In this document: piece by piece, positions 3,294 to 24,989 of the stretch | Layout of the letters: each line of letters begins with the position of its first letter | Numbering within the stretch: the stretch's first letter is position 1 | Assembly (NCBI GenBank): GCA_017609225.1 | Contig: JAFCEK010000001.1 | Location: forward strand, 1 to 49,982 | DNA from: Candidatus Aenigmatarchaeota archaeon | Lineage (GTDB): Archaea > Aenigmatarchaeota > Aenigmatarchaeia > QMZP01 | Length of the DNA stretch: 49,982 nt | Direction: 5' to 3' | Translations under genes and position numbers: made by a program | Notes under the pieces: model-generated | Databases searched by the model: none | Told to the model about the DNA's origin: nothing | What the model saw: the letters and a program-made list of their open reading frames with translations, nothing else

Positions 3294-3435
3294 GCAAACA
3301 CCAGCCAAATCACAGACTGCTTTATTAAGCAACAGCCGGTGCTTAATATAAGCAGTCAAATTATACATTGAATATGATTAAGTTTAAAACTCTTTATTAT
3401 ATAATGAATAAGAAATAAATATTCATGTGAGCCGC

Positions 3436-4782: not shown

Positions 4783-5175
4783 ATGAAAGCCCAGATGTTT
4801 GTTATAACAATGGTTTTTCTTGCAGGCCTTTTGCTTTCAGTGCAGCAGGGATTATTACAATACTCTGCAGTTGATATGCGCTCAGCGCTTTCCAGCAATG
4901 ATTTTTTTCTGCTGGAAAACATAAGAAATGTAATGGACATTACAGTGAAGAATGCTGAAAGCTGCACAGCCCTGAAGGAAGAAATTGATGAGCTTGAAAA
5001 ATTCATGGAGAATTCATTAATAGTTTCTGAATACTTTGTAAACATTGAACATGAGATAAACTGCAACAACTGGTATAACACTCCAGATACAGGACCTTCA
5101 CCACTTAAACTCATAATTAAAATCAGTGGAGAAAAAACCCAGACACAGGCAGCATTTTATCTATATCATGAATAG
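4783..5175 (+). CDS. Small secreted protein with a class III (pilin-like) signal peptide
   Basis: MKA/QMFVITMVFLAGLLL: a short charged N-terminus, a K-A-Q site, then a hydrophobic helix. Confidence 0.55.
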   Translation: MKAQMFVITMVFLAGLLLSVQQGLLQYSAVDMRSALSSNDFFLLENIRNVMDITVKNAESCTALKEEIDELEKFMENSLIVSEYFVNIEHEINCNNWYNTPDTGPSPLKLIIKISGEKTQTQAAFYLYHE

Positions 5176-5193
5176 TTAAAAGCAAAAACAAAA

Positions 5194-8100
5194 TCATACC
5201 CTTCTTTTTTTGTAAACCAGTGCAGCAGCTATTATCACAATTATTACAGCAACCACTGCCAGCGCTATGCCTGTTATATTAACAGGGGCTTCACAAACAA
5301 GCCCTGATTCATTGCAGCCATATGTGCATGTTTCAACTGTTTCCCAGCCAGTGCCATCACCAGAGCACTGCTGAAGTTCATTTCCAAGGCATCTCTTTAA
5401 TCCAGGACTGCAAACTGTTTGTGTTGGGGCAATTCCCTCCTCTGTGTTGCACACAAGCGCTGTTTCATTGCATCCATACTGGCATGTTTCTATGGTTTCC
5501 CATGCACTTCCATCTGACATGCACCGCTGAAGGTCATCGCCAGAGCACTGTATAGCATCTGGTGTGCAAACAGTCCCTGCGGCTGCTGCTTCTTCACCTG
5601 TTATTGCAAATACAGAGAATCCAGGCGTTGTTGCCTGATAATATACATAATCTTCAACACCTGTAGCCCTGCCTGTTATGGCACCCAGAATTCCTTCAAC
5701 AAACTCAATAACACCCTTAACTATGCATCCAAGCCCAAGGATTCCGCAGTCACCTGCTGTAACAGCCCCTGTCAGTGAAAGGCTTCCGCTGACCTTTGCT
5801 GTCTGAAGGGTTTGCCATGTGTTGTCCTTGTATCTCATCATTTTCACGCTGTTTTCATCTATACTGTTATCAGTCAGCCATGATTTCAAAACCTTGAATT
5901 TTATCTTCGCTGTTGTTATGTTTTCCTCTTTTATATTCAATGCTGTTATAGTCAGATAGGCAAAAACATTTCCGGGTGCATCTGTTACATTTGCTGGTTT
6001 TGCTGCTTCTTTTTTAACTGTCACAACCACATTCTCAGCATTGGTTTTTGGTGTTATTGTTATTTCCTGAACATACAGATCATCCTCTTTTGTAAATGCT
6101 GCAACACCTGATGTGCCTGCAGGTATTGTGCCTATGTTTACTGTTTCGGAAACGCTGGATGCACCGGCTGCACCACCACCAGGCGTGCCCCCAGTGTCCC
6201 TTCCACCCGTAGATGTTCCAGGCTCTCCGGATGCCCAGATGGAGAATTCACAATATGGAATCTGCCATGTGCATGTTGTGGAAGTTGTGCCTGTAAGGTT
6301 TGCCTCATCTGTTCTTTCAATGCAATTTTCCCCTGAATTATCGCACTGGTATAAATGGTCGCATGCTGTATCCCCTCTCGGAATTGTCAGTTTGCATATC
6401 TGCGGATGGAGATTGTTTATTATCTTGTCTCTTGTTTCTGATATCATGCCAACATATCCGATTGTATTTCCTGAGGAATCTGTTTCACTGTCACTGAACA
6501 GCAAATCACCGGCTTCCTGTATATCCCTGGTATCGCTGCTCAGGCCGGTTTTTGTCAGGGTAACATTAAGGAAAATGATCTCACCACCCTCTGTATAGTT
6601 CAGCTTTATATTGGCTCTCCTGCCGGATGTATAATTGGTTTTCATTCCTGCATTCGGGCCGCATACCTGTCCCTGCACATGTTCCCATGTTCCATCCTGG
6701 TCAAGGTCATAACTCACGGTCCAGCCATCAGGCACCTGAATCAGGGTTACAAAATTACAGTAGGGGCATCTTGTAGCACTTGCTGTTCTTATTGGGGTGC
6801 ATGCGCTTATGCTGCATCTGGATTCAGAGTCACATATTTTTATTTTGTAATAATAGGTAGTGTTTGGCTGCAGGTCATAGTCAAGCGAGTTTACGCCACC
6901 ATCATTATAGATCTCTGCTGTGTGCCAAAGCTTGTGCTCTCTTACATCATCACTCAAAATACCAATATCATATATTGTCCTGTTGTATGGCGTTGAGCTG
7001 CATGTTGAGTCATTATACCAGAAGAACACTGTACCATTTGTGGGCTTGCTTGTTTCATACATTATCAGTGCAGAATCAGTATATTCTTCAAATTTAACAC
7101 CCACTATTACAGGCATGGATGTATCAACATAGTCAGGCGAATTTACCCCAACACCTTCGCAGTTTGGAGCAAATTCACAATCCCAGTCATTGCAGTCAAC
7201 CATATCATCATCGTCATCATCCACGCCGTTAAGACAGTCCTCATACTTTACAAAGCCATGCATAAGTATGTCTTCAAACATTGCCGTGTCTACATCCTGC
7301 TCAAAAAACCCGTCTATTGAAAAGTCAATTGCCCCGGGTGTAACCCAGCCAGGGCCAACCATATCGGAAGGTGAACTTGCATTTTTGTTTTCACTCGCTG
7401 AAGCTGCGGACACCCTCATATCTTTTTCGGAATCATAAAGCAACGGGAATTTTTCAAGGTCAGATTTCTTTACAGCCAGCATTGGTCCATGTATTACAGA
7501 GCACATCTTCTCTTTCCATGCGCTTAAAGTTATATCAGCAGCCTCCCATCCCCCGCTTGCACCGCACTTGTAGGCATTGAATACCTCGGTGGCTTTGTTA
7601 AGACTGGAATTCCATGCAGATATGTACTTGAACATAAACTCATAACCCCCTGCTGATGAATTATGCCCAAGGGAACAACCTCCTGTGGTGCTCCCGTCTG
7701 TATCAAGGTATATGTAAAGCTTCACAGTCTGATTGCCGCTTCCGAACATACCAGGACCTGTTTTTTCATCCTTGCATATTCCTGCCTGGCTGAAGTCCCT
7801 GACATCTACACCAAACCCGAAAGCATCACCTATATCCTTCATTCCCAGTCCGCATATATCCACAGCACCATCAAGCCCGGAATCAGGCCCTACCAAATCA
7901 CAGCCATCAGGATCAAATGCAACAGGAACAGGCGGCCCCTCTTCCATGCCATAAAACATATCATGCATTCCGGGAGAGGTACAGAAGCCGGTCATCCATC
8001 TGCATCCAGTGCCGCATTCAGCCTCTGTTGCAGCTGAGAAACATGTTGGCTCGCACCAGCCGCCATCAGGAGCCCCTGCCTGGGTTGTCCAGTTGCAGTA

Positions 8101-11100
8101 GGGGCTTTCATCACATGCTGTCTGGTTTGAGCTTAAAGTGATGTTGGTATGACACTGTTCAAATACGTTTGTGCAGTATCCAAATTCGCTGCTCCACATG
8201 CACTGTGTCTGCTCATCACACATTGTCTGGTTCCAGTCATACTTCCAGCATTCCATGCTCCAGTCAGGCTCACAGAACGGATATGGTTCAGGCATCCACT
8301 GGCATGCCATGCCGATCAGCGTTTCATTTGTGCATGCTGACTCATTCCCGTCATACTTCCAGCATTCCATACCTGCCTGTGCACCTGTGCCCATTCCACC
8401 AATAACATCCCCGCCTGCAAACCCTTTTGGATTGCACCAGCCGGGTTCCTTCCATCTGCAGCCTTCGGTGGCATCACATGCATTCTGGTCGTTTGATAAT
8501 GATTCATTCCAGCAGTCAACTCCTCCAGCACTCCAGTCCTCCATGCACCAGCCGTCAGTCCATCTGCATCCTGCAACGCTGTTACAGCCGTTTTCACCAA
8601 GGCTCTGGTTATAGCATATAGGCTCGCAAAAACCAGAAGGGTCCCAGTAGCAGATATCAGAATGCTGACTGCATGCTGCCTGGTTATCATAATCCCAGCA
8701 AACCATTAACTGGTTATCGCACCAGCTGCCCCATGAATCAGTTCTCCATGTGCAGCCAGCTGCAGTGTTACATGAGACATTGTCATTATACTGCCAGCAG
8801 TTTGATGACCAGTCCACATCACACACCGCGCCCCAGTCATTTGTTTCCCATCTGCAGCCCTCAGTGAGATTACACGCAGTCCTGTTACTGTCATACAGCC
8901 AGCAGTTTTTTGGGGCAAACGCTGCAGGCTCGCACCAGCCGCCTTGGGTCTGGCACCATTCTGTGGTGGCTCCCTCACCTTCACAATATGTGTCATTTGT
9001 CCATATACAATCCGATGGGCTGGCTTCGCATGCTGTCTGTGTTGTCATGGAATAGCATTCTTCCCCGATGCTCCAGTCCTGCTCACACCACCCGCTTCCT
9101 GTTCCATTGGACCATTCACAGGTTGCATTCCTCGCAAGGCATGCTGACTCATTCCCGTCATATTTCCAGCAGTCAGCACCAGGGAAATCACACCAGCTTC
9201 CCCAAGGGTCTGTCATCCATGTGCAGTTGTTGGCAATGCAGTTTGCCTCGCCAAGGTCTTCCAGCTCTGGATTATACCAGCCAAAACAGTCACCTGAAAC
9301 AAATCCGCAAAACGAATCAGCAAAGCATTCAGGATCAGTGCAATCAATAAGGTTATCATTATCATTATCAATAGAATCCCAGCATATTTCGGCTGTTTCT
9401 CCTGCCTTTGAGCAGTAGCCATCATTTTCCCCGCCTGACCATTCACAGGAACCTGTTGCATTGATTGCGCTCCTGCCTTTGTTTACACAGTCATACTGCG
9501 TATAACATCTGTCACAGGAATCTTCACATGTTTTTTCACTGCTGTCAACACAATACCCGCCCATTTCACTATTGTTTTCCTGAATCCATTTGCATTTAAC
9601 ATTATTGAATTCGTACGCATGCTCACAGTAGCACTTGGGGGTATTGCACATGTCAAAGGTTGTTGCAGAGCCTGGTGCAGCACTGGAATAGCTTGAAGCA
9701 TTTGGGTTTCCATAATAGGTGCAGCTTCCGCAGTCTGTTGTGCAGTCTGAAGCTATTCCAGTTTTAAACTGTTTTTTCGCCCTGCATGTGCCAAACCCGT
9801 TGGGAGCATCAGCATCAGCAGTAAATACGCATTTTGGGTTTTGCAGGCAATACTCCCTGGCGCTGGCTGTTGAATTATGCGCAGTCCCGTCAAATTTGTA
9901 TTCACATGCATAGCATGCCTTCATACAGTTTCTTTCATCGCTTCCCTTTGGCTCACATCTTCCGGATGGCACAGAAAGGTTTCCCTCGCAGTAATTCTCC
10001 AGAACCCATTTGCATCCGGCAGCCAGGCAGTTCCTTTCATTATCCAGAATGGTGCAGCTTTGGGTTTCATTTACACCAAAAATATCCTCCCTGTTGGGTA
10101 TGCATGTTTTTGTGGAGTTATCCCATATGCAGGGCATATACCATGGGTCTCCGGCTATCTGGTCGCATAAGGTCCTTGCAGACTCGGAATCAGTTGTTTT
10201 CATAATAACATCCTCGCATGAGGTTACGCCCTCCGGGACAGGTTCCATTTCGTCATAACATGCATGACTTATCCTGTTTTCAGTACAGCTTCCAGCCTTC
10301 CATTCACAGCATGTAGCAAGCATGGATATGGTGTTGCAAAGCCTTGATTCATTAATCATAGTGCAGTTTATTCCGTGATCCTGTATCTGGTTTGCATTGG
10401 CATGGCTTGTATTAATTATGCATTCATTGCTGCTGTATTCACAGCCAAGAACATTATTGCAGTTTGTTGAATTTTTATCAAAAAGGTAACATCCGGGGTT
10501 CCATTCCTCAAAAATACTTTCCCCATAACCAAAATCAGAAGGGTCTATGCAGCTTCCCCCCAGAGCAGGATTGGTCCAGTCAGTATACTGCCAGAAGCAG
10601 TAGTATGTTTCCATACACTCCCTTTCTGTTGTTATATTGGAACATGACATATTGAAATTCGGATAACACCAGCCATCGTTGGGTCCTGCGCCCCAGCTCT
10701 CCCAGGCACAATTCAACCCATAGGCATTATTCACACAATCATTCTGGGTGCCTCCTCTCCAGCCATCCCATGTCCAGCACTGTACCTCTTCACACCAGCC
10801 CCAGCCTTCTGAAAGCCGCCATGTACAGCCTGCAGCTTCACACTCGCCGGCAGTACTATAATCCCAGCAGCCCTCCTCCATGCAGTATGATGAGCCGTCC
10901 CATGTGCAATTTAATCCATAGGGATTGTTTTCACATGCACTCTGGTTTGTAAAGTCAAAATGCCAGCATGAGTACTCTTCGCATGAATCATGAACATAAT
11001 AATTATCTACCCATGTGCAGTTCATACCTTCAGGATTGTTTTCACACACACTCTGATTTGTTCCTGAATAATCCCAGCAGCCCTTTTCATAGCAGTAAGA

Positions 11101-11646
11101 AGACTGGGAATTCCATGAGCAGCTCTGGTTTTTTGAACCCAGCCCATTATTGCATTCAGCTTCTGTGGAATAGCTCCAGCAGCCTGCTTCATAACAGCTT
11201 CCCCATCTGCATCCTGTAGCATTCCTGCATTCAGCCTCTGTTTCCAGCTCCCAGCAATTTATGTTGGGATTGTAGCCTGTGCATTCGTTTTCCCAGCTGC
11301 ATCTCAGATTATAGATGTTATTTTCACACGCACTCTGGTTTGTTCCGTCAAATGTATCGCAATGAGGCTGTTCGCACCAGCCCCAGTCCGTTCCTGTCTG
11401 CCATGTGCAGTTTTTTCCGGGAATATCAGCTGAGAGGCATGCTGTTTCATTCCAGAAATTCCAGCATCCCAACTCTTCGCACCATCCGCCCCATTCGTCT
11501 GTATGCCAGTTGCAGTTAATATCAGCTTCGCATTCTGTTTCTGTTGTATAACTCCAGCAGTCTGCAGCAGCAAACGGAGAAACAAATATAATTGAAAACA
11601 TAGTAATTGCTGCAACTGCCCAAAAAAGAACAAATCCAGCCCTCAT
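5194..11646 (-). CDS. Giant (2150 aa) Cys/Trp-rich, sequon-rich surface protein with a C-terminal TM anchor
   Basis: Uninterrupted 6.45-kb ORF. Sec signal MRAGFVLFWAVAAITMFSIIFVSPFAAA. Many CW-x-C-x-C-x-W-x-WC repeats. Two D-rich DxDxDNLIDCxDxxC motifs. An FN3-like segment. A PGF-pre-PGF-like domain ends in TTPGFSVFAITGE. There are two Cys modules, then the TM IALAVVAVIIVIIAAALVY and KKRRV. Confidence 0.9.
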   Translation of the reverse strand: MRAGFVLFWAVAAITMFSIIFVSPFAAADCWSYTTETECEADINCNWHTDEWGGWCEELGCWNFWNETACLSADIPGKNCTWQTGTDWGWCEQPHCDTFDGTNQSACENNIYNLRCSWENECTGYNPNINCWELETEAECRNATGCRWGSCYEAGCWSYSTEAECNNGLGSKNQSCSWNSQSSYCYEKGCWDYSGTNQSVCENNPEGMNCTWVDNYYVHDSCEEYSCWHFDFTNQSACENNPYGLNCTWDGSSYCMEEGCWDYSTAGECEAAGCTWRLSEGWGWCEEVQCWTWDGWRGGTQNDCVNNAYGLNCAWESWGAGPNDGWCYPNFNMSCSNITTERECMETYYCFWQYTDWTNPALGGSCIDPSDFGYGESIFEEWNPGCYLFDKNSTNCNNVLGCEYSSNECIINTSHANANQIQDHGINCTMINESRLCNTISMLATCCEWKAGSCTENRISHACYDEMEPVPEGVTSCEDVIMKTTDSESARTLCDQIAGDPWYMPCIWDNSTKTCIPNREDIFGVNETQSCTILDNERNCLAAGCKWVLENYCEGNLSVPSGRCEPKGSDERNCMKACYACEYKFDGTAHNSTASAREYCLQNPKCVFTADADAPNGFGTCRAKKQFKTGIASDCTTDCGSCTYYGNPNASSYSSAAPGSATTFDMCNTPKCYCEHAYEFNNVKCKWIQENNSEMGGYCVDSSEKTCEDSCDRCYTQYDCVNKGRSAINATGSCEWSGGENDGYCSKAGETAEICWDSIDNDNDNLIDCTDPECFADSFCGFVSGDCFGWYNPELEDLGEANCIANNCTWMTDPWGSWCDFPGADCWKYDGNESACLARNATCEWSNGTGSGWCEQDWSIGEECYSMTTQTACEASPSDCIWTNDTYCEGEGATTEWCQTQGGWCEPAAFAPKNCWLYDSNRTACNLTEGCRWETNDWGAVCDVDWSSNCWQYNDNVSCNTAAGCTWRTDSWGSWCDNQLMVCWDYDNQAACSQHSDICYWDPSGFCEPICYNQSLGENGCNSVAGCRWTDGWCMEDWSAGGVDCWNESLSNDQNACDATEGCRWKEPGWCNPKGFAGGDVIGGMGTGAQAGMECWKYDGNESACTNETLIGMACQWMPEPYPFCEPDWSMECWKYDWNQTMCDEQTQCMWSSEFGYCTNVFEQCHTNITLSSNQTACDESPYCNWTTQAGAPDGGWCEPTCFSAATEAECGTGCRWMTGFCTSPGMHDMFYGMEEGPPVPVAFDPDGCDLVGPDSGLDGAVDICGLGMKDIGDAFGFGVDVRDFSQAGICKDEKTGPGMFGSGNQTVKLYIYLDTDGSTTGGCSLGHNSSAGGYEFMFKYISAWNSSLNKATEVFNAYKCGASGGWEAADITLSAWKEKMCSVIHGPMLAVKKSDLEKFPLLYDSEKDMRVSAASASENKNASSPSDMVGPGWVTPGAIDFSIDGFFEQDVDTAMFEDILMHGFVKYEDCLNGVDDDDDDMVDCNDWDCEFAPNCEGVGVNSPDYVDTSMPVIVGVKFEEYTDSALIMYETSKPTNGTVFFWYNDSTCSSTPYNRTIYDIGILSDDVREHKLWHTAEIYNDGGVNSLDYDLQPNTTYYYKIKICDSESRCSISACTPIRTASATRCPYCNFVTLIQVPDGWTVSYDLDQDGTWEHVQGQVCGPNAGMKTNYTSGRRANIKLNYTEGGEIIFLNVTLTKTGLSSDTRDIQEAGDLLFSDSETDSSGNTIGYVGMISETRDKIINNLHPQICKLTIPRGDTACDHLYQCDNSGENCIERTDEANLTGTTSTTCTWQIPYCEFSIWASGEPGTSTGGRDTGGTPGGGAAGASSVSETVNIGTIPAGTSGVAAFTKEDDLYVQEITITPKTNAENVVVTVKKEAAKPANVTDAPGNVFAYLTITALNIKEENITTAKIKFKVLKSWLTDNSIDENSVKMMRYKDNTWQTLQTAKVSGSLSLTGAVTAGDCGILGLGCIVKGVIEFVEGILGAITGRATGVEDYVYYQATTPGFSVFAITGEEAAAAGTVCTPDAIQCSGDDLQRCMSDGSAWETIETCQYGCNETALVCNTEEGIAPTQTVCSPGLKRCLGNELQQCSGDGTGWETVETCTYGCNESGLVCEAPVNITGIALAVVAVIIVIIAAALVYKKRRV

Positions 11647-11705
11647 TATATATAATTAATATAGAGAATATAAATATTTAAACCAATTCAAACCAAATAT
11701 TATTC
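11647..11705. promoter_or_regulatory. Divergent AT-rich promoter region between the giant gene and the pilin-like operon
   Basis: 59 bp (tatatataattaatatagagaatataaatattta...) with several TATA-like boxes. It sits between two divergent start codons. Confidence 0.5.
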
Positions 11706-11933
11706 ATGAATAATTCTAAAGGGGCATTCCAGCTGAGTCTGAGCTTCATTATAATAATAGTTTTTGCTATTGTTCTTTTAACCCTTGCAGTAACATGGCT
11801 GCAGGGCGTGATAACCAGTGTAACAGGTCTTACAAATGATCTAACACAGCAGGCACAGAGCAAGCTTCAGAGCACGTTTTCGCAGACAAACAAAAACTTT
11901 GCTGTATGGCCCAGCAGCTATAAGATTGAGTGA
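11706..11933 (+). CDS. Pilin-like protein, N-terminal part (class III signal peptide), ending at an in-frame TGA
   Basis: MNNSKGA/FQLSLSFIIIIVFAIVLLTLAV. Same reading frame as 11949-12323. Confidence 0.6.
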   Translation: MNNSKGAFQLSLSFIIIIVFAIVLLTLAVTWLQGVITSVTGLTNDLTQQAQSKLQSTFSQTNKNFAVWPSSYKIE

Positions 11934-11948
11934 GGCAAGGCATTCAAG

Positions 11949-12323
11949 ATGTCTGCAGGAGTGAAAAACAATGCAGATGACGGGGCAAGCCATAAATTTG
12001 TATTGAATGTTGTCCCTGCAGCTGCAAGTGTAAGCATATTTAGCTCCTATGGCTGTTCAGGAACTGATATAAACAGCTGCGTTGCACTTGAAAATGATAT
12101 GGCAGGATGGGTAACATTTCCCGCAGGCGTGTTCACAGTGCAGATAAACAGTGTGGGATACAGGGATATAACAATAACAATACCAGATGATGCCAAAACC
12201 GGAACATACCAGTTTGATGCTGTCGTGTGCTGCACTGACTGTGCTGATTATGCTGGCTCCTGCACAACAGACAACCTTAACTGGGGCGGAAGCGCGCAGC
12301 CGATTCAGATAATTGTTGAATAA
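11949..12323 (+). CDS. Cys-containing extracellular-type domain without its own signal peptide (probable C-terminal part of 11706)
   Basis: In frame with 11706-11933, separated by TGA at 11931-11933 and 5 sense codons. There is no hydrophobic N-terminus. Confidence 0.55.
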   Translation: MSAGVKNNADDGASHKFVLNVVPAAASVSIFSSYGCSGTDINSCVALENDMAGWVTFPAGVFTVQINSVGYRDITITIPDDAKTGTYQFDAVVCCTDCADYAGSCTTDNLNWGGSAQPIQIIVE

Positions 12324-12370
12324 TTCTTTGAATATATTATAACAAAAACAATTATTATTTAGTGGGATGT

Positions 12371-12847
12371 ATGAATGTGGGAGCTGTGTTTGGCATAATA
12401 TTTGCCGCAATATTCATAGGATTTATCCTGGCATTTGGTACAGGAGCAATAACAGACATATTCTGTGTTGGCAATGTTGCCCAGACAAACAATGCAGTAA
12501 AGCAGCTTGAGATAGCTGTTGAAAACCTTTATGTAAGGGGATCCGAGGGCTCAAGCGATGAATATACACTAAACATACCTGACAATGCAAGGGTATGCTT
12601 TGTGAACAGCACAGATGCAAGCCCGAATGTCCTGGGCGGCTGGATGCCAGACCCTGATACAGCGCATATAGTGAAAAGAAAGATAGAAACACAAAACCTC
12701 AATGTATGGGTTTACTACAACTGCGGAAGCCAGGAGCCGGGTTACAGGATTGAGTATCTCTCTGTGCCCAGCAGCTTTTGCGCCAGTCCAGGAACATCGC
12801 TCTATCTGGAGAACAAGGGACTTTCGGTTGAGATATCAAAAATGTAA
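12371..12847 (+). CDS. N-terminally anchored secreted protein (operon member)
   Basis: MNVGAVFGIIFAAIFIGFILAF hydrophobic N-terminus. Tightly spaced in the co-directional operon. Confidence 0.6.
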   Translation: MNVGAVFGIIFAAIFIGFILAFGTGAITDIFCVGNVAQTNNAVKQLEIAVENLYVRGSEGSSDEYTLNIPDNARVCFVNSTDASPNVLGGWMPDPDTAHIVKRKIETQNLNVWVYYNCGSQEPGYRIEYLSVPSSFCASPGTSLYLENKGLSVEISKM

Positions 12848-12887
12848 TTCATCAGCGCATGATTCAGAGTTCACATAACTGATATGC

Positions 12888-14015: not shown

Positions 14016-14536
14016 AAACAAAAAACATAAAGGGGCAGTATTCTGTTCTTGAATATGTGTTTCTTTCCCTGTTCATTATAGCAATCATAATAGGGCTCAT
14101 GTTTTTCCTTACCATATGGAGCAGCATACAGTTTGGAGCTGAAAGCATGAAAACAGAATGGGACAGGGCTTTATGGCTCGGCCAGTATGTTCAGAACATT
14201 CCCCTGCTGGTTAAGGAAACAGGCATGTTTGATGATGGCAAGCTGACAGCCCTTGCAAGCATGGGCCCATCAAAGGCATGCGAATATCTTGAAAGCCTTG
14301 CAGGCCCTGACTTCTTTATGGAACTCAGGATTCTGGATGGAAATGAAACCCAGATAAACTGCACATGGCAGAACTATCCTGACTGCAATTACTGGGAGTT
14401 CTGCAAAAATACAGGCAAAAAAAAGAAAAAATTCTACACGCTTCCTGTAAATGTTTACAGAAGGATAGGGTTCAAGCTTCAGGAAACAACCACAGGCAGA
14501 ACAGACATTGGAATATTAAAGGCAGGTGTGTACTGA
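14012..14536 (+). CDS. Pilin-like protein with a class III signal peptide
   Basis: MKTKNIKG/QYSVLEYVFLSLFIIAIIIGLMFFL: K-G-Q site followed by a hydrophobic helix. Confidence 0.7.
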   Translation: MKTKNIKGQYSVLEYVFLSLFIIAIIIGLMFFLTIWSSIQFGAESMKTEWDRALWLGQYVQNIPLLVKETGMFDDGKLTALASMGPSKACEYLESLAGPDFFMELRILDGNETQINCTWQNYPDCNYWEFCKNTGKKKKKFYTLPVNVYRRIGFKLQETTTGRTDIGILKAGVY

Positions 14537-14559
14537 GGGTAGCAGCGGAAGGAGATTGC

Positions 14560-15093: not shown

Positions 15094-15169
15094 CAGCATG
15101 CCCAGCTCTGCGAGCCCATGATTTCAAATAATTTCCAAATTTATATACATATAATGTTAATTAATTATT

Positions 15170-17020: not shown

Positions 17021-17031
17021 AAGATGAGAAT

Positions 17032-20000
17032 ATGGATATAAAGCACCTTGCACTGGAAATCTTTGCAGTAGCGGTATCCTATTTATTGTTAATGTTACCT
17101 GTAACATCAGCCACAAGCGTTAATATATTTTTCAATGGCATACAGCAGGACACAACAGATATATCTCCCGGAAATCTTGTAAGCAAAGAGATAAACGTGT
17201 ATCATGATGCTGATGATATAACATGGACAAACATAAAGGTTCTTGTAACCCTGAGCAGCGCAAGCCTTTCCCACAGCATAAAGAAAATATATTTATACAA
17301 ATGCAAAACACTGTCGCCATCCGCATGCATCCAGGGAACGCCCCAGGTATTTGACAGCTGGATTGATACAGAGCTTTCATGGAATGATATATCCCAGAGT
17401 GAGGGCGTGGGGGTTTATCCCCAAACAGCAAACCTGATGTTCCTTGTTAAGCTTGAAGACTTCAATGGCAAGGCAAGCTGGGTTGGCTTCTGGGATACCA
17501 TAAGAAGAATAGACTACAACATATTCAATCATTATAGTTATCCCCTCAATGAAATTGAATTTCATGCAAAATCCCTGGATATGATAGAACCCATAAAGAC
17601 ATACATAGAAAATTACCAGATGATTCCCTTCAACTGGGCAGAGAAGGTTGTATTCAGGATGGCAAACATACTCTATGGTGTTGGTGCAAACGAGCAGGAA
17701 ATTGAACAGACACCACCGTTTTTTGATGGGGCCCAGACAAGTACAAACCAGGTAACAAGCATAGGAAAGGACTATTACTTTGTGCTTTCAAACATCACAA
17801 GCGGCATAACCAATCCTGTAACCATGCGTTTGAATCCATCATTCACATGCGGCAATGGCCAATGCGAAACAGACTTGGGAGAAACCACATCAACATGCTG
17901 CTATGACTGCGGCTGCGCAGCAGATTTCTATTGCGATATGAGTGATGAACAGAATCCGGAAACAGGCGCCTGCAGGTCGCTAACAGAAATCACAGTAGAT
18001 GTAACAAGCACATCAATGGCTGACATAACTGACTGCAGCCAGAACCAGCAGTTAACTATAACAGCGCAGATAAATAATGCACCTTCCAACCTTCCCGCAA
18101 CGCTTACAGGATATATAAAACTGAATGAAACCCAGTATAATGTTCCATGCCAGTCAAGCATCCCAGGAATATATGAATGCACTGTAAATCTGCAGCCAGA
18201 GGTAAGATGCGGTGACGGAAGCTATGTTCTTGGTCCAAATGAGATTAATTTCACCATACCATTTAATGACGGACCTGATATGATAACTGAAACAATAGGA
18301 ACAGAATTTTCTGACATAACAGTAAACTACAACTGCGAATGTGCAGGCGGATATTATTGTGATTCCGGTCTGAGAATGTGCAAGCCGGAGGGGCAGATAG
18401 CGCTTGTTATAATAAATGTTACCTCATATATGGATAATTACAATCCTGCAGGGGATAACATAGGAATATATGCAACAATAAACAATCCCCCATCTGACAT
18501 GAGTATTACAGGAAGTTCATATGTTCTGGGAAACATAACCTTTGACGGAAGTTCTTCGCCTGGTTCCTCAGGAAGCGTGACATGTGATGAAAGCAACAAC
18601 ATATATTACTGCAGCATACCGCTGTTTATACAAAACTATGACCACTCAAGGCAGTATATAGTGAACGGAAACAGCCTCTCATTTACAATAAGCTTTAGTG
18701 ATGGCGGCAACTCCATAACAAAAACGCTTACAACAGGGTTTTCCGATATTATAGTGCCTTCGTACAGATGCGGTGATACTACATGCAATGCCGAAGAGAA
18801 TTCAGATAACTGCTGCCTGGACTGCGGATGTCCCAATCCCGATGATTACTGTGACAGGGTTTACGGCTGCGTGAACGAAAACAACATAACCATGGTTATC
18901 GATACAATAACACCTGAAAACCTGACTGACTGCAAGATACCCCATGTGCTTAACATAAAAGCAAGAATACTCAACGCGCCAAGCGACCTTGTTCTCAATT
19001 ATTATTATTATCTGCAGAATGATGAAATAAAGGGCTGGAACCTGTTATGCATGGAATCACCGCCAGGATCAAATATGGGAATTTTTGAATGCCAGCTTGC
19101 TGTTCCCCCCATTGATGATTGTTCCCTGCCTTATTACACGCTTGGCAATAATAAGCTGAGGTTTTCAGTTTCATTTCCAAACGGCCTCACGCAGGTTCTG
19201 ACAAAAACGCTTGAGGCTGAGTTTCAGGATATAAACATAGTTCCAACATACCATTGCGGTGACAATATATGCGAATATGACCTAAACGAGAGCGGCTCTG
19301 TGTGCTGTATTGACTGCATATGCGGCTCAGACCCGGATTTTGGATCTGAATATTACTGCGACTATGACCCCCAGCTGAATCCAAACGGCACATGCCTCCC
19401 AAAAAACAACATAACACTTGTTATAGACAAGCCGATGGCAGTTGTGCATTTCACAAGCTGCGAGAAGGCAAACACAGTAAACATAAAGGCGCATGTTGAA
19501 AACCAGCCTTCAGGCATGATTGTTGAAAATATTTTCGGCATTTTCAACGGGGAAACAGCTGAATATATCTCATGCACACCTGAAATGGGAATAATTACAA
19601 CACCAAACTATACAGGACCTGTTGAATGGAACTCATACAACTGCAGTCTTATTGTACCTGCAGAGCAGCAATGTTCACAGGGCCAGACATACACCTATAG
19701 CAATAACTCACTCTCATTCTTCATAAGCTATACAAACGGTTTGGGAAAAAGGGAAACACAGATACTTACACAGCCATATCCTGATGTGACAATAACCCAG
19801 AATATAAGAACACTTTATGACATAATGCAGGATGCAATCAGCAGGATGAAAGGAAAGCTTCAGGAAACCATAACACTTATGGAGGACCTCATCAAAATGT
19901 GGGAGGACTGTTTGGACATGCTGATTGCATTAACCATAGTAATGGTTATAGGAACAATTGTGGCAGGCGTTATTGGAGCCAAGACCGGAGGGACAGAAGG

Positions 20001-21426
20001 ATTCTCTGAAACAGTAAAGGCATCAAGTGCAGCCAGCACTGCAGTCATAACAACACTCATGGGCATATGCGAAATAATGGGTAAGGTAATACAGCTCAGA
20101 ATAAATATGAAGGAAACAGAGATTGACTTTATAAGAATGGAAACATGCATCGAGGTTTACCAGCACCAGATGGACACGGGAATGTGTGACAGGAATGCTG
20201 AGGGCTGCTTTAATGCAATAGCAGGCTGCATAGAGTTCGGGGAAATTAATAGTTTCATAAACAGCGCACAGAGCATAGGCAGGGATATAAACTCCCAGGT
20301 ACAGCGGATTGGAAACGCATGGAGAAATGTGGGAGAAACAGTTGAAGGCCTTTCATTCGGAGCCCAGGGAGAAGGTGCAATAAGCTTCACATGCTCTCCT
20401 GGAGGCAGCTACTGTTGCGGCTATGTACCAAGAACAACAACAGGCGCAGGGCAGAACCAGTACCAGCTTCAGACAGTCAGCCTGACTATGGCCAGTCTGA
20501 AAAACTGTGAGAGGCCAAGCATAAAGATATACTCAAAGAAGGACTGGCTGGCAAGCTCCGATGTATGCAAATCAGCAAGCGGCAGGGCAGATGATGAGGC
20601 AGAAACAGCAGCAAACCAGATATGCATTGAAGCTGGTACAGGGTGCAATGTTGACAGGAAGACCATAAGCAGGCATGACAGGGTTTTTGAATGCAAGTAT
20701 CTGCTAAAGGAAGGCGACAACGGATACGATGAAAATGTAAAGATGCAGTGCGAGGCAAAATCAGCATATGCGAATCAGGCAGGAAAAGAAAAAGCCAATA
20801 AAATATGTGAAAGCGAGGGCGGTTCAGGCTGCAAGGCAAAGGCAACCTTCTGGGGTGAGAATGAATTTAAATGTGTATCCTCAGAAACAGGATTCAAGGA
20901 AATAACATCTTCTTACAGGGGAACCACAAAGGAGCTGTTCGGACCGCAGATGTTTGGCCAGTCAGACCAGGATTCGGGAAATGATGAATATGCCTTTGTT
21001 CTGGCATGTGATGGCGTGGACACAGACACATCCCAAACAGTGAAGTACTGCCTGGGAACACCGCAGGCAGGATGCGGAACAGGCTCTCCATGCGCTGCTG
21101 TCCGCCCGGAATGGGAAGACATGGCTCCAAAATCACCTGCAGGCACAATAACACCAACAGCAACACCTGTTGATACCCCAACAACATTCAGCGTCCAAAC
21201 AGACGCATCAGTTGTTTCTTTTGTATGGCTTATAAACGGCAGAGAATTGCGTAGAGGCAGAACATATGATGATGATAATTATGGCTACAGGGTATTGGAT
21301 ATAACCAGCGATGGAAGATTGATAATTGAATTCACAAAACCAAACAGATACCCGCTTGAATCGCGCATAACAGATGACAGCGGAAACATTGGCTACATAA
21401 CAGAATGGATAGATGTTTCACCCTGA
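17032..21426 (+). CDS. Giant (1464 aa) modular Cys-rich surface protein with an internal hydrophobic segment
   Basis: Sec signal (LLLMLPVTSA). Four tandem modules of roughly 150 aa, three of which start CG-x-x-x-CE...CC-x-DC-x-C while the second starts with the variant CECAGGYYC. TM-like LIALTIVMVIGTIVAGVIGA at 19921-19980. Cys-rich C-terminal region and a PKD-like end. Confidence 0.85.
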   Translation: MDIKHLALEIFAVAVSYLLLMLPVTSATSVNIFFNGIQQDTTDISPGNLVSKEINVYHDADDITWTNIKVLVTLSSASLSHSIKKIYLYKCKTLSPSACIQGTPQVFDSWIDTELSWNDISQSEGVGVYPQTANLMFLVKLEDFNGKASWVGFWDTIRRIDYNIFNHYSYPLNEIEFHAKSLDMIEPIKTYIENYQMIPFNWAEKVVFRMANILYGVGANEQEIEQTPPFFDGAQTSTNQVTSIGKDYYFVLSNITSGITNPVTMRLNPSFTCGNGQCETDLGETTSTCCYDCGCAADFYCDMSDEQNPETGACRSLTEITVDVTSTSMADITDCSQNQQLTITAQINNAPSNLPATLTGYIKLNETQYNVPCQSSIPGIYECTVNLQPEVRCGDGSYVLGPNEINFTIPFNDGPDMITETIGTEFSDITVNYNCECAGGYYCDSGLRMCKPEGQIALVIINVTSYMDNYNPAGDNIGIYATINNPPSDMSITGSSYVLGNITFDGSSSPGSSGSVTCDESNNIYYCSIPLFIQNYDHSRQYIVNGNSLSFTISFSDGGNSITKTLTTGFSDIIVPSYRCGDTTCNAEENSDNCCLDCGCPNPDDYCDRVYGCVNENNITMVIDTITPENLTDCKIPHVLNIKARILNAPSDLVLNYYYYLQNDEIKGWNLLCMESPPGSNMGIFECQLAVPPIDDCSLPYYTLGNNKLRFSVSFPNGLTQVLTKTLEAEFQDINIVPTYHCGDNICEYDLNESGSVCCIDCICGSDPDFGSEYYCDYDPQLNPNGTCLPKNNITLVIDKPMAVVHFTSCEKANTVNIKAHVENQPSGMIVENIFGIFNGETAEYISCTPEMGIITTPNYTGPVEWNSYNCSLIVPAEQQCSQGQTYTYSNNSLSFFISYTNGLGKRETQILTQPYPDVTITQNIRTLYDIMQDAISRMKGKLQETITLMEDLIKMWEDCLDMLIALTIVMVIGTIVAGVIGAKTGGTEGFSETVKASSAASTAVITTLMGICEIMGKVIQLRINMKETEIDFIRMETCIEVYQHQMDTGMCDRNAEGCFNAIAGCIEFGEINSFINSAQSIGRDINSQVQRIGNAWRNVGETVEGLSFGAQGEGAISFTCSPGGSYCCGYVPRTTTGAGQNQYQLQTVSLTMASLKNCERPSIKIYSKKDWLASSDVCKSASGRADDEAETAANQICIEAGTGCNVDRKTISRHDRVFECKYLLKEGDNGYDENVKMQCEAKSAYANQAGKEKANKICESEGGSGCKAKATFWGENEFKCVSSETGFKEITSSYRGTTKELFGPQMFGQSDQDSGNDEYAFVLACDGVDTDTSQTVKYCLGTPQAGCGTGSPCAAVRPEWEDMAPKSPAGTITPTATPVDTPTTFSVQTDASVVSFVWLINGRELRRGRTYDDDNYGYRVLDITSDGRLIIEFTKPNRYPLESRITDDSGNIGYITEWIDVSP

Positions 21427-21455
21427 TTTTTATTTCCTTCTGCCTAATTATTTAT

Positions 21456-23006
21456 ATGAAATTAGCACCTGCACTTTTCCTTGCTTTTGCAATAGTTATG
21501 CTGTTTTCCCCTGTGTCAGCCCTGAGGATTAATGATAATCTTTATTTCACAATAAGCAATGACAGCGTAAAATGTGTTGATATTTTTCTGCCTGATGATG
21601 CAGGGGTTTTTGACCTGGGGCTTTTCGAGTATGTTATAACAAGCACAAGCCCATGGGGCGACCTGACAGAGCAGATAGTGAGAACAGATGAGAACAATAC
21701 AGTACTGATACCAATATGCTTTTTTGGCTCAGAATGGCCAGAGTGCCAGTGCTCAAACCATACAATCACCATATCAGTGCCTTCGCTTGGGATAAGCAAA
21801 ACCTTCAGAGGCGGGGTTTGCGTATCCAGCATAGAGGATGTTGATATTGTGGATGATGCCGGGGGGCAGACACCGGACCAGGTTCTTAACACCAACATGG
21901 ACATGTTCAGTATAGGATTTCAGATGCCAGTTCAGCATGCAGCTCCGGGGGAAACCGTTACATACAGGCTGTTTGCCGAGTCGCAGGCGGATATAGTGCT
22001 TGACATAATATTTGAAAATTCAGAATTATCAGTAATACCTGCCCAGGCGCAGGCAGAGCTGGACAGCTCAAACCCCTTTGAACTCTTTGACTTTAATGTT
22101 ACAGCCCCAAGCCAGGCAGGAAGCTATACGTTTACAATAACTGCTGCAGCCAGGGACTGCACAGGAAATTTCTGCACAAAAAAAGCCAGAGGAACGCTTA
22201 ATGTTGGAGGCACACCCTCCGCAGGATTTTCTGTAAATCTGTTCCCAAAAAACCTTAATGTCAGGGAGCTTACATCTGTTAGATATGAATTTTCAATCCA
22301 GAACTTTGGTGAACCGGAAAACTTTACCATAACAGGAAACATACCACAGAATCTTGCCACAGATTTCCGGGAAACAACCCTGTTTGTAGGGTCCAAAAAA
22401 ATAAAAAGCATAAAATTTTCTGTTACGCCTGCTGCATCCTCAAGCCTTTATGAGATAACAATATCCGCCACTGGCTCCGGAAACAACACAAAGCATGCCA
22501 CTGCATACCTTTCCACAAATGAAATGCTGACAGACCCGCAGAGGTATGCAAACAGCATAACAGGAAGCACAGACAACAGAAGCATTATAAACAATGTGAA
22601 CAACGCAATGAACAGCTGGCAGAATTCATACAGCTCAAACACATATGGAGCGGATACAGGGCAGTACAGCAGCCTGCAGGAAACCCTTGGCATTGCACAA
22701 TCCTCACTTAAGTCATCCCAGGAGCAGCCAGCGGGAATATGCACCCCAGGCAAAAAGCAGTGTTATGGTATGCTCCTTCAGGAATGCAGGCAGGACGGCT
22801 CAGGCTGGGAAACCCTTGAAACATGCGATTATGGATGCGATAATACACTGCATGCATGCATACAGGACAGTGGAGGGCAGCCATCTGCAGGTTTTGACTA
22901 CATATGGATTATTGTTATAGCTGTCATTGCTGCAGCAGCCATTGGCTTTATTTTTTACAGAAAAAAATCAGGCGGCCTGGAGGCCGAGCTTGAACAGGAG
23001 TTTTGA
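21456..23006 (+). CDS. Surface protein (about 516 aa) with Sec signal, C-terminal Cys module, TM anchor and acidic tail
   Basis: MKLAPALFLAFAIVMLFSPVSA. The C-terminal CTPGKKQCYGMLLQECRQDGSGWETLETCDYGC module is shared with the 2150-aa protein. TM YIWIIVIAVIAAAAIGFIF. The ATG at 21456 avoids overlap with the upstream stop at 21426. Confidence 0.8.
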   Translation: MKLAPALFLAFAIVMLFSPVSALRINDNLYFTISNDSVKCVDIFLPDDAGVFDLGLFEYVITSTSPWGDLTEQIVRTDENNTVLIPICFFGSEWPECQCSNHTITISVPSLGISKTFRGGVCVSSIEDVDIVDDAGGQTPDQVLNTNMDMFSIGFQMPVQHAAPGETVTYRLFAESQADIVLDIIFENSELSVIPAQAQAELDSSNPFELFDFNVTAPSQAGSYTFTITAAARDCTGNFCTKKARGTLNVGGTPSAGFSVNLFPKNLNVRELTSVRYEFSIQNFGEPENFTITGNIPQNLATDFRETTLFVGSKKIKSIKFSVTPAASSSLYEITISATGSGNNTKHATAYLSTNEMLTDPQRYANSITGSTDNRSIINNVNNAMNSWQNSYSSNTYGADTGQYSSLQETLGIAQSSLKSSQEQPAGICTPGKKQCYGMLLQECRQDGSGWETLETCDYGCDNTLHACIQDSGGQPSAGFDYIWIIVIAVIAAAAIGFIFYRKKSGGLEAELEQEF

Positions 23007-23019
23007 GTCTTAATTTTAT

Positions 23020-23130
23020 GCTGAACCAGAAAACCATTGTTTTCAAACAGCGGATGTATGGTTCTGGTTCAACAGCTGTTGCCTCGCCAAGAAAACCGCC
23101 GACTTTAGTCAGCGGATATACGGAGGCAAC
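23020..23130 (+). repeat. MITE-like two-hairpin repeat, copy 2 (intergenic, between convergent genes)
   Basis: Same ~110-bp sequence as the other three copies. Flanked by TTTAT and ATTAT. Confidence 0.85.
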
Positions 23131-23146
23131 ATTATATTAGTCTGAC

Positions 23147-24922
23147 TCAGAATTCTTCTTCGCTTCCAGCATCATCCTCAAACTCTTCTTCCCCGGCAGA
23201 TTCCTTTCCACTGCCAAGACCATGTTTTTTGAGAAATTTGAATGCTACAAAAACAACCACCAGCACCACAACAACTATTATAACAAGAGTGAAATCAAAA
23301 CCCCCGCCTGCACTAACAGGCTGCACTGCAGCCCCAAGAGCAATAACATTCTGAAGAAGACTGAATTTTGCGCTGGCAGAGTCATAGTATTCTTTTGCCC
23401 GGGTATAATCACTGTCTTTATATGAATCTGCAGAGCTTATATCGCTGTCTATGTCATCCAATATATAATAAAACAGGTTTTCCTGATCCAAACTAAGATT
23501 CATTCTGAAGCTGGAAAATTCCTGCTGCAGTGAATCTACATCGCCTGAAATATCCTGGAAAAATTCAGCGCTTACAACTATATTTGCTGTTCCAGCACCT
23601 GTATCTATCTCAATTGTGCCGCTGTATCTTCCGGGGCTGGGAGTTGAAAGCGAAACATTCACTATTCCTGAGCTGCCTGGTGCTATGGAATTTGGCAAAA
23701 CCACAGAAGCTATTGAGCCTATTGTTCCAGTGGCTGAATAACTAATGTTATCCATTGTGCTGTTTCCAAGGTTTGAGAGCGTGAATGTTCTGTAAATTGT
23801 TTCTCCAACTGTGCTGGTTTCAATCCATGTTGAAGGTGAAATGCTCAGGTCACCAGACACGCAGGCAGGGCAGTCCCCACCAGCGCTCCCATCACACTCA
23901 TTCATAACGCTTATGGTTATGTTTACAGGTATCCTGCCTATCACAGTTCCGTTTGAAACAATATCTGCCTGGGTTCCTATCTCCATGCTGTTTTGTATGT
24001 TGTTCAGGTTTACAGTAAAGTAAATAGTCCCTTTTCCTTCTATTGTGCTGTTGCCCAGGGTTATGCTGAGATATGGTGAAAGCGCAGATATTATGCTGGT
24101 TGACAGGTCTGCTATGCTCTCATTGCCAAGATTTCTTATCCTGAATCCTCCCTGCGAAAAGCTCTGTCCTTTTGTAACCATAACATCCAGGGAAACAGCA
24201 TCTATCTCCAGGTCAGCAGGCACATATGCCCCACCGGTTTCTTCACCTTTAATTACAAATCTTACCAGGTCACCGCCAAAGCTTGTTCCTCCGCTGTTTT
24301 GAGCGGCGAATGCCATGTAGTACTCGCCGGGCCCCAGGCTTATATTGCCTATGTAACCTCTTATGGGAGTATAATAAACCAGGCTGCCTGACTTTTCAGG
24401 CAGAAGGTCTATGCTGCTGTTGTATGTTTTGTAGCTTACACCTGTAACCCCTGTATCAGACCATACTGTTATATCAACCATGCCATTATTATTTGTTGTT
24501 ATGTTTATGGTAAGCTCTATATCACCTGCATTTACAGTGTCCTGAAATCCGCTTTCCTGACCATAGGCATCGCTAATGTTTACAGAGAATGTATAAGGTA
24601 TAAATGTTTCAGAGCCCTGATATTTTGATGCATAGAAGGGCGTGGGACCGCATGTGCTCTTTTCATCTGTATTTGAAAAATAGCAAACCCACCTGTTTCC
24701 GGACCTTGGAAACGAGCCAAAACCATCTGCTATGCCAAAAACCTGCCATCTTACCCTTATGGACTTGGAATATTCCCCCGGATCTGCTACTGCAATAAAG
24801 CTTGCGTTTGCGGAGAATTTTTCAGGGATAAATGTTACTATGGGGTCGGGAAGCGCCTGCACATTAACCAAAACCAGTGCAAAAACCAGAAACCCGGCTG
24901 CCAGCCCCGCACATATTTTCAT
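23147..24922 (-). CDS. Surface protein (591 aa) with Sec signal, beta-rich repeats, C-terminal TM and acidic tail
   Basis: MKICAGLAAGFLVFALVLVNVQA. C-terminal FDFTLVIIVVVVLVVVFVAFKF followed by KKHG...EEEFEDDAGSEEEF. Confidence 0.8.
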   Translation of the reverse strand: MKICAGLAAGFLVFALVLVNVQALPDPIVTFIPEKFSANASFIAVADPGEYSKSIRVRWQVFGIADGFGSFPRSGNRWVCYFSNTDEKSTCGPTPFYASKYQGSETFIPYTFSVNISDAYGQESGFQDTVNAGDIELTINITTNNNGMVDITVWSDTGVTGVSYKTYNSSIDLLPEKSGSLVYYTPIRGYIGNISLGPGEYYMAFAAQNSGGTSFGGDLVRFVIKGEETGGAYVPADLEIDAVSLDVMVTKGQSFSQGGFRIRNLGNESIADLSTSIISALSPYLSITLGNSTIEGKGTIYFTVNLNNIQNSMEIGTQADIVSNGTVIGRIPVNITISVMNECDGSAGGDCPACVSGDLSISPSTWIETSTVGETIYRTFTLSNLGNSTMDNISYSATGTIGSIASVVLPNSIAPGSSGIVNVSLSTPSPGRYSGTIEIDTGAGTANIVVSAEFFQDISGDVDSLQQEFSSFRMNLSLDQENLFYYILDDIDSDISSADSYKDSDYTRAKEYYDSASAKFSLLQNVIALGAAVQPVSAGGGFDFTLVIIVVVVLVVVFVAFKFLKKHGLGSGKESAGEEEFEDDAGSEEEF

Positions 24923-24989
24923 ATATAATTATTATATTCCCGCTCTATATAAATCCTTCCAGTGAATATTTATTGTGTTAGGTGCTGAT

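Follow-up and report, generated by a model that had tools for sequence, protein, structure and literature searches.

A phylum-wide operon of pilin-like and giant exported proteins in the Aenigmatarchaeota, resembling a type IV filament and adhesin locus

Why does an archaeon keep, among its housekeeping genes, a run of genes for exported proteins only? The question is raised by the 20-kb region between aspS and xpf on contig JAFCEK010000001.1 (assembly GCA_017609225.1), which we analysed within the whole stretch of 49,982 nucleotides, called the window below. The DNA comes from a DPANN archaeon with a small genome, a member of the Aenigmatarchaeota; the affiliation of the homologues agrees with the small-genome archaeon supposed in a preliminary description of this DNA. 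On balance, and with restrained confidence, we suggest that the region is a type-IV-filament-like pilin and adhesin operon, present across the phylum and vertically inherited. The observations behind this suggestion are conservation, sequence motifs, predicted folds and domain fusions.

All 12 open reading frames (ORFs) between aspS and xpf carry an N-terminal hydrophobic signal or anchor, as the preliminary description had it, versus 2 of the 33 flanking ORFs. The gene gA is entered twice in this count because of an internal stop. The ORF coordinates given earlier were confirmed. The features are as follows, with a slash at the putative junction of the pilin-like proteins and at the end of the signal peptide of gH.

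3427-4728: aspS, flank gene
4783..5175, plus strand: g130, small pilin-like protein, MKA/QMFVITMVFLAGLLL...
5194..11646, minus strand: g2150, giant 2150-aa surface protein with a Sec signal peptide
11647..11705: AT-rich divergent spacer of 59 nt with TATA-like elements on both strands
11706..12323, plus strand: gA, pilin-like protein, MNNSKG/AFQLSLSFIIIIVFAIVLL..., 205 codons with an in-frame TGA inside
11931..11933, plus strand: in-frame TGA of gA
12371..12847, plus strand: gB, bitopic protein with a hydrophobic helix at its very start (MNVGAVFGIIFAAIFIGF...); alternative start GTG at 12362
12888..14015, plus strand: gC, 375-aa bitopic protein with an N-terminal helix and an extracellular domain with conserved Cys
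14012..14536, plus strand: gD, small pilin-like protein, MKTKNIKG/QYSVLEYVFL...; 4-nt overlap with the gC stop
14560..15093, plus strand: gE, small pilin-like protein, MNAEKNHEKA/QASIIMIVLVLII...
15170..17020, plus strand: gF, 616-aa pilin-like modular protein, MNIRKG/QAELIILVG...
17032..21426, plus strand: gG, 1464-aa protein with a Sec signal peptide
21456..23006, plus strand: gH, membrane glycoprotein of type I whose Sec signal peptide is MKLAPALFLAFAIVMLFSPVSA/L; 21405 is the start of its longest ORF
23007..23146: convergent spacer between gH and g591 with two strong hairpins
23147..24922, minus strand: g591, likewise a membrane glycoprotein of type I, with a Sec signal peptide
24975-25667: xpf, flank gene

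Conserved gene order and a pilin-type junction

Synteny was assessed by tblastn of the window proteins against 19 fetched loci. The order aspS, g130, gA to gH, g591 (minus strand), xpf, pyrG (minus strand) recurs in about 12 other Aenigmatarchaeota assemblies at 30-57% identity; such a comparison across related genomes had been proposed as a check in the preliminary description. All gF homologues that bear a taxon name are Candidatus Aenigmarchaeota/Aenigmatarchaeota. Within the window, the genes that run in one direction from 11706 to 23006 are separated by 47, 40, -4, 23, 76, 11 and -22 nt, and the last value (gG/gH) becomes +29 nt with the gH start at 21456. With gaps of -22 to 76 nt, all below the 80 nt named earlier, and with the order of gA to gH kept in these assemblies, the proposal of a single operon holds. 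Judged from these comparisons, the operon is old, vertically inherited and fixed in its chromosomal position across the phylum. A mobile or foreign island was considered and rejected, as relatives have the genes at the same chromosomal site and the GC content and third-position GC content (GC3) of the island genes equal those of their neighbours.

The five proteins g130, gA, gD, gE and gF have a short basic leader that ends in K-G or K-A; the next residue is Q or A, and a hydrophobic helix comes after it. The motifs are MKA/Q (4783), SKGA/F (11706), IKG/Q (14012), EKA/Q (14560) and RKG/Q (15170); all five class III, pilin-like patterns of the preliminary description are thus present. A crude class-III-like pattern matches seven of the 207 six-frame ORFs of the window, and four of these seven belong to the operon (four of the five in the pilin-like set).

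The [KR][GA]/[QA] junction and the helix behind it are kept across nearly all orthologues examined of the five families. Consensus sequences of the junction are K[AG]/QMF in g130 (orthologues from 10 other loci), [KR][GA]/A[FI][QE][LM]S in gA, [KR]G/Q..[IL]MEY in gD (16 aligned loci, with small variants), [KR][AG]/Q[ST][ST] with the hydrophobic helix in gE (17 aligned loci, with NGQ in one), and RKG/Q.E in gF, where K5, G6 and Q7 are nearly invariant and E9 is invariant (alignments A1/A2). Beyond the N-terminus the five families have no mutual similarity in hhalign comparisons; N-terminal matches among them stand at 75% for gD-gE and 37% for gA-gF. Since a plain signal anchor would need no fixed G/A-Q junction, we suggest that this junction is a processing site.

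The other proteins of the region are exported or anchored in other ways. Sec-type signal peptides are present in g2150, gG, gH and g591, and g2150, gH and g591 have a C-terminal transmembrane (TM) anchor as well. gB and gC open directly with a hydrophobic helix, in keeping with the N-terminal anchors noted earlier for 12371 and 12888.

Members of the operon and their neighbours

gF and gG form the core of the cluster. They are 11 nt apart in the window and overlap in several loci, and only this pair survives in distant relatives and at the rearranged CP070801.1 locus (L001, L020 and L021; L-numbers denote loci). Hence, by their conservation, gF and gG are probably a functional pair. CP070801.1, the only complete genome recovered (L001/L008, 454814-476658), lacks g130 and gA to gC at this locus, has gD only as a C-terminal fragment beside a truncated cation-ATPase gene, and matches residues 18-347 of the 533 of gH, running into masked sequence.

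In gF, an N-terminal helix is followed by an alpha/beta domain of novel type and by two beta-sandwiches that are carboxypeptidase-regulatory/Ig-like. Its AlphaFold2 model has a pLDDT (predicted local distance difference test) of 89, with a helix at residues 6-32 followed by a break. In a Foldseek search of the PDB only the beta-sandwich domains match, to generic folds of the Ig-like or CnaB/PapD-like kind, e.g. 3mn8 with a root-mean-square deviation of 3.0 over 83 aa; the query-normalised whole-chain template-modelling score (TM-score) is at most 0.19, SlaB is among the matches, and the alpha/beta domain has no clear structural relative. By sequence the window gF shows weak CarboxypepD_reg-like (PF13620-like) domains; an exact-sequence look-up and a PDB sequence/profile search gave no match. 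A profile search of 1.84 billion cluster representatives found 302 relatives at E<=1e-30, and among the best 150 of them essentially all matches are full-length or near-full-length. Two relatives, P0231 (1102 aa) and P0242 (996 aa), carry a C-terminal VWA domain.

gG begins with a conserved N-terminal domain, followed by three to four modules of Cys-knot plus beta type (Y-CGD-C...CC-DC-C) and, at residues ~925-1100, by a hydrophobic/helical region with a conserved QH..D.G.C...CF motif. The hydrophobic segment exceeds the TM threshold in 8 of 15 orthologues. Identity is 0.35-0.55 up to residue 950 and 0.12-0.19 beyond residue 1150, and tblastn coverage extends from residue 1 to ~1100 only in all loci. 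The C-terminal third varies between lineages, with PKD/Ig domains in L005, L006 and L019 and a PT-HINT domain in L002. No Pfam, NCBIfam or PDB match was obtained for the window gG, which includes Neisseria_PilC, the PilY1/PilC beta-propeller; its likeness to PilY1 is one of position and size. Of 10 gG orthologues tested, PT-HINT was found in that of L002 alone, and the C-terminus of the window gG has no match. We note that in this orthologue (14856-16511 of a 520-kb metagenome contig) PT-HINT, at E 1.5e-19, is followed by ~190 unassigned aa. Its end thus appears polymorphic-toxin-like by domain content, unlike that of the window gG.

The gene of the candidate main subunit, gA, is interrupted in the window. 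The ORF from 11706, listed earlier among the pilin-like ones, ends after 75 codons at TGA 11931-11933 and the frame runs on to 12323, while all 37 homologues are intact, ~200 aa long and align across the stop position. At this position most homologues have Arg, and some Pro, Ala, Ser or Lys. In the public record the gene is reduced to 11949-12323 (P0064, 124 aa), a piece without a signal of its own. The TGA would have arisen by nonsense mutation, through an error of assembly or as a variant within the population; a CGA to TGA transition seems the simplest explanation, because the Arg of most homologues is one transition away. Recoding of the TGA was considered and rejected: 19 of the 41 window genes end with TGA, so it is an ordinary stop here, and the homologues have neither Cys nor Trp at this place. 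The AlphaFold2 model of the closest intact homologue, P0065 (35-sequence alignment, pLDDT 90.8), shows a first helix spanning residues 7-39, then a shorter one, and a beta-sandwich at 65-207. Such a helix plus beta-sandwich resembles the architecture of archaeal pilins.

In 6 of 10 loci g130 immediately precedes gA and shares its strand, which suggests that the ancestral operon opened with it; g130 is probably the first gene of that operon. Two of its orthologues carry fused domains: Laminin_G_3 (a ConA-like lectin domain, PF13385) and a right-handed beta-helix in L004 (3079-6270, 1064 aa), and an Lcl_C domain in L014 (3880-5814, 645 aa). The window g130 has no Pfam match and no added module. 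An adhesion or carbohydrate domain behind a pilin-type N-terminus, the mark of a modular pilin, is thus found in orthologues of both gF and g130.

By profile comparison, gB and the N-terminal portion of gC are paralogous (hhalign probability 94% over 109 columns). gB also matches gA over the N-terminal 49 columns (63%), and in three gB orthologues an in-frame upstream leader ends in K[AG] right before the Met at which the others start. gC is found in 16 loci, the window included, with six invariant Cys in alignment A5, and has no Pfam, NCBIfam or PDB sequence match.

At the far end of the operon, gH has Ig-like domains, one Cys-rich stalk module that is common to g2150, a C-terminal TM helix and an acidic tail ending in EQEF; its orthologues occur in 11 fetched syntenic loci. 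g591, conserved beside xpf in nine loci, has 13 N-glycosylation sequons, a C-terminal TM helix, an acidic cytoplasmic tail with EEEF repeats and a choice-of-anchor-D/CARDB-like Ig domain (NF012200, E 1.2e-8, below the cutoff of that model). Acidic tails of the EEEF type lie at 22900-23006 in gH and at 23147-23330 in g591, and orthologues with them occur in L002-L019. The tails end in aromatic residues (EEF, EEFY, EYY, DFY) in most g591 orthologues and in about half of the gH orthologues; such ends may form a conserved motif through which a cytoplasmic partner docks at the C-terminus.

The 140-nt spacer between these two genes (23007-23146) has a minimum free energy of -48.8, versus -31.5 +/- 3.8 for shuffled sequences (z -4.6). 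Its hairpins contain the near-repeat CAGCGGATGTATGG / CAGCGGATATACGG, match no Rfam family and are probably bidirectional terminator-like structures. The spacer is 0-91 nt long in other loci, and the long structured form is specific to the genome of the window.

g2150 does not belong to the conserved operon. It has no tblastn match in 18 syntenic loci, and the description of the 20 kb as one island fails here, since the gene is missing at the same position in all other syntenic loci. On this comparison g2150 is a lineage-variable insertion, a separate surface protein whose gene has entered between g130 and gA in the lineage of the window alone. The slot between g130 and gA is empty in six loci, holds the C-terminal extension of g130 in L004 and L014, a SpoIIM-like membrane protein and a different 1329-aa Cys-rich protein in L002, and g2150 in the window. 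The 59-bp spacer across which g2150 and gA diverge has the length and AT-richness reported before. The divergent arrangement itself appears secondary, a by-product of the g2150 insertion, because g130 adjoins gA in 6 of 10 loci; a promoter function of the spacer is something we infer from its sequence.

g2150 contains 7.9% Cys, at least 14 'CW-Y..C..C-W' repeats and two acidic double-disulfide (teneurin-like) motifs, with a match to acid_disulf_rpt and, as the sole result of a PDB search, a short teneurin-like motif (the Ca-binding motif of Teneurin-4). Residues 1852-1953 form a PGF-pre-PGF domain (TIGR04213, E 1.3e-26, 93.4 bits versus a cutoff of 28). The C-terminus has two Cys-rich stalk modules and then the TM anchor, ending ITGIALAVVAVIIVIIAAALVYKKRRV (KKRRV); no model of the PGF-CTERM sorting signal matches at E<=0.01. 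With other PGF-pre-PGF surface proteins it shares the domain above the curated cutoff, and NCBI names several of its homologues so; it differs from them in the TM helix and KKRRV end after two Cys-rich modules and in being a giant of ~2000 aa with Cys/Trp repeats. There are 166 clusters of homologues, typically 1800-2100 aa long and 31-62% identical over most of their length, from Woesearchaeota, Nanoarchaeota, Pacearchaeota and Aenigmarchaeota, and elsewhere they stand in unrelated gene contexts. By sequence, g2150 is a member of a DPANN-wide, uncharacterised PGF-pre-PGF giant family. The earlier remark that the large proteins were not recognised as members of any characterised family fits gG, which matched no family, and needs amending for g2150, whose family is recognisable though uncharacterised. 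Likewise, 'giant Cys-rich proteins' suits the 2150-aa and the 1464-aa protein (4.5% Cys in the latter), suits the 533-aa protein weakly (2.8%) and does not suit the 591-aa protein (1.0%).

Two further observations concern g2150. The Cys-rich module of ~40 aa, C.P....C.G..L..C..DGS.WE....C.YGC, occurs twice in it (residues ~2027-2110, window 5194-5560) and once in gH (residue 446), always just outside the C-terminal TM anchor. On a 1.3-Mb contig (L023, 17100-25752), presumably of DPANN origin because the giant family is encoded there, a g2150 homologue stands 2 kb from a T2SSE ATPase gene, two T2SSF platform genes and pilin-like ORFs, one of 691 aa, with the N-termini KAQ...E, KCQ...E and RAQ...E. 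The pilins of this locus have no homology to the window proteins by tblastn.

The region as a whole lies on an archaeal chromosome, with genes for aspS, xpf, pyrG, PCNA, exosome, proteasome, FttA and OapB/C around it. Scanned against Pfam and NCBIfam, no island protein other than g2150 matched a family significantly, and an Rfam scan found no RNA families in the window. Outside the island the sole convincing exported product is a protein with SNase and lamin-tail domains and a signal peptide (48566-49402). OapC and OapB (origin-associated proteins) are encoded at 41153-42098 beside a GTPase and a proteasome subunit, and from this neighbourhood a replication origin may be close to the window.

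Proposed assembly, known relatives and rival explanations

We suggest the following scheme. g130, gA, gD, gE and gF would be prepilin-like proteins that are cleaved before Q/A, and their helices of ~20-30 residues would pack into a filament core. The main subunit is likely gA, with ~200 aa, a helix and an Ig-like sandwich. Minor or tip subunits would be g130, gD, gE and the large gF, with adhesion modules in some lineages. The bitopic paralogues gB and gC would probably be located at the membrane base. gG, the giant Sec-exported partner of gF, would likely be a displayed adhesin analogous to PilY1, with a swappable outer third, and gH and g591 would be type I envelope glycoproteins associated with the structure. 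Assembly would be carried out by a prepilin peptidase, an ATPase and a platform protein encoded elsewhere in the genome; in favour of this, Li et al. (PMC8407114) report FlaI, FlaJ and FlaG in most metagenome-assembled genomes of Aenigmarchaeota. The most likely role would be attachment to a host cell or a surface. The VWA, lectin, beta-helix and Lcl_C modules grafted onto gF and g130 orthologues fit an adhesive tip.

The bacterial likeness proposed earlier is the minor-pilin/PilY1 arrangement, represented here by that of Pseudomonas, to which the type II secretion (T2S) pseudopilins GspG-K can be added. The systems are alike in having several small class-III-type proteins in one operon, one large pilin-like member (gF, comparable to GspK) and a Sec-exported protein of >1000 aa (gG, comparable to PilY1). 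They differ in that the window cluster shows no sequence or fold homology to them, has no PilY1/PilC beta-propeller in gG, is archaeal, has Q/A at +1, and contains two leaderless bitopic paralogues (gB and gC) and two type I glycoproteins. The Pseudomonas operon, like that of the window, is without an ATPase, a platform protein or a peptidase: fimU-pilVWXY1Y2E stands apart from pilBCD. The missing nearby ATPase is therefore neutral to the analogy. The arrangement gains from the adhesion modules on gF and g130 orthologues, the conserved motif and the predicted fold of a gA homologue; a sequence or fold match to support it was not obtained.

Bacterial modular pilins are reported to carry VWA, PF13385 lectin and PF13620-type modules at the pilus tip for adhesion (PMC8179133). 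The PilB-vWA and PilC-lectin proteins of Streptococcus sanguinis resemble the cluster in joining a pilin-type N-terminus to a grafted module (VWA in gF relatives, lectin in a g130 orthologue) and in the PF13620-like fold, found in gF. The difference is that the pilin modules are unrelated in sequence and that the archaeal carriers (the domain of g130 and the alpha/beta domain of gF) are uncharacterised. Among archaea, the Epd pili of Methanococcus, of TFF (type IV filament) "system 1", share a KG/Q-style signal and multiple minor pilins with adhesin-like proteins in one transcription unit. Epd pilins are processed by EppA and have Q at +1, and system 1 is reported in some DPANN (bioRxiv 10.64898/2026.04.22.720090). 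The KAQ...E pilins beside T2SSE and two T2SSF genes on the presumed DPANN contig L023 have a signal of this style as well. The Epd locus differs in encoding an ATPase, two platform proteins and a peptidase of its own, none of which is present in the window locus; the window set in turn has no Pfam pilin N-terminal match above noise and no acidic residue at +5.

Several results weigh against the filament proposed for the window. The conserved acidic residue is at +3 in gF and gA and at +6 in gD, and is absent from gE and g130, the canonical position being +5. Pfam models (Pilin_N PF07790, Class_IIIsignal, archaellin) and NCBIfam models gave no match to the window proteins at E<=0.1, and among 74 orthologous N-termini compared with Pfam, Pilin_N was found in six with a best E of 0.002, the level of random TM families. 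No island protein has a sequence or fold match to a known pilin, PilY1 or archaellin. Foldseek matched the gA homologue model to generic PapD/MSP/WxLIP Ig sandwiches in the PDB, with a query-normalised whole-chain TM-score of about 0.44 at most and no archaeal pilin in the top 50, and a PDB sequence/profile search with gA gave no match; of the helix plus beta-sheet head looked for in predicted structures, the model shows the outline, with no pilin among these matches. gB and gC are mostly leaderless. gA is interrupted in the window, so the fibre may be defective in this genome or the base call may be wrong. A pilus ATPase, a platform protein and a prepilin peptidase were found by Pfam neither among the ORFs of at least 110 aa in the 50-kb window, which agrees with the earlier remark that none is nearby, nor in any 21-kb syntenic locus. 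Finally, we infer cleavage, polymerisation, partner binding and the adhesive role rather than observe them. The pilin claim is based on motif, architecture and context rather than on membership of a known pilin family.

The same lack of an assembly ATPase and platform protein in the window and in every syntenic locus would suit a membrane-anchored surface complex without a polymerised fibre, in which [KR][GA]Q N-termini, as class III or signal-anchor tethers, keep extracellular proteins on the cell, with gG, gH and g591, in the form of an attachment patch. gB and gC, as plain N-terminally anchored proteins, the 616 aa of gF, bulky for a filament subunit, and the lack of homology to known pilins fit this explanation as well. 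Against it stand the strict conservation of the G/A-Q junction across five unrelated families and the helix-plus-sandwich lollipop predicted for the gA homologue. The Sulfolobus "bindosome", whose sugar-binding proteins would be the model for such tethers, itself requires a TFF-type ATPase and a platform protein. In bacteria, module-grafted pilins are filament tip subunits (PMC8179133). We consider such a complex unlikely, though deserving of attention.

S-layer genes are reported for the phylum (PMC8407114). These, and SlaB among the Foldseek matches of gF, agree with an S-layer or anchoring envelope cluster in which gH, g591 and gG are envelope glycoproteins and the small proteins are biogenesis or anchoring factors, with no attachment role. 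The fixed position among housekeeping genes across the phylum and the Ig-like domains and conserved acidic cytoplasmic tails of the type I glycoproteins gH and g591 point the same way. Degeneration of the locus in the complete genome CP070801.1 would be unexpected if the cluster were essential; the fused VWA, lectin and Lcl_C domains suggest a ligand-binding role, and the C-terminus of gG is hypervariable. Such a cluster is, in our view, quite improbable.

More speculative still, gF-gG with the accessory pilin-like proteins might be a DPANN-specific host-contact organelle that is independent of the canonical type IV filament ATPase. A self-assembling stalk would then present gG to, or insert it into, the host envelope via the Cys/His helical region and the swappable C-terminal module. 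We regard this variant as a long shot. Contact-dependent effector delivery, with gG as a polymorphic-toxin-like protein whose C-terminal domain is HINT-released or inserted into a partner and with a pilin-like stalk, draws on the conserved 1100 N-terminal aa and variable C-terminus of gG, the PT-HINT of the L002 orthologue and the conserved hydrophobic segment with its Cys/His helical region, and is very improbable given that the other orthologues tested have PKD/Ig domains or nothing recognisable, that no toxin domain was identified in gG and no immunity-like gene after it, gH being directly next in all loci, and that the hydrophobic segment passes the TM threshold in just over half of the orthologues.

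The type-IV-filament-like pilin and adhesin operon is hence the explanation that we favour. The kind of system is known; the novelty lies in its protein families, in the paralogues that lack a leader, in the gF-gG core and in the fixed position across the phylum.

Significance for DPANN archaea

To our knowledge, the molecular basis of host recognition and attachment in DPANN archaea is largely unknown, and we know of no characterised surface structures in Aenigmatarchaeota. The present analysis defines a concrete phylum-wide cluster of ten gene families, none of the ten being in Pfam. Its hallmarks are a processing-type motif, a coupled gF-gG core and lineage-specific modules (VWA, lectin, beta-helix, Lcl_C, PKD and HINT). 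This suggests that the "modular pilin" strategy of bacteria is also used in archaea. The comparison also shows a 2000-aa PGF-pre-PGF giant, common to several phyla of DPANN, that enters and leaves such loci. Were the ATPase-independent host-contact organelle real, it would represent a new class of machine for interaction between archaeal cells and their partners.

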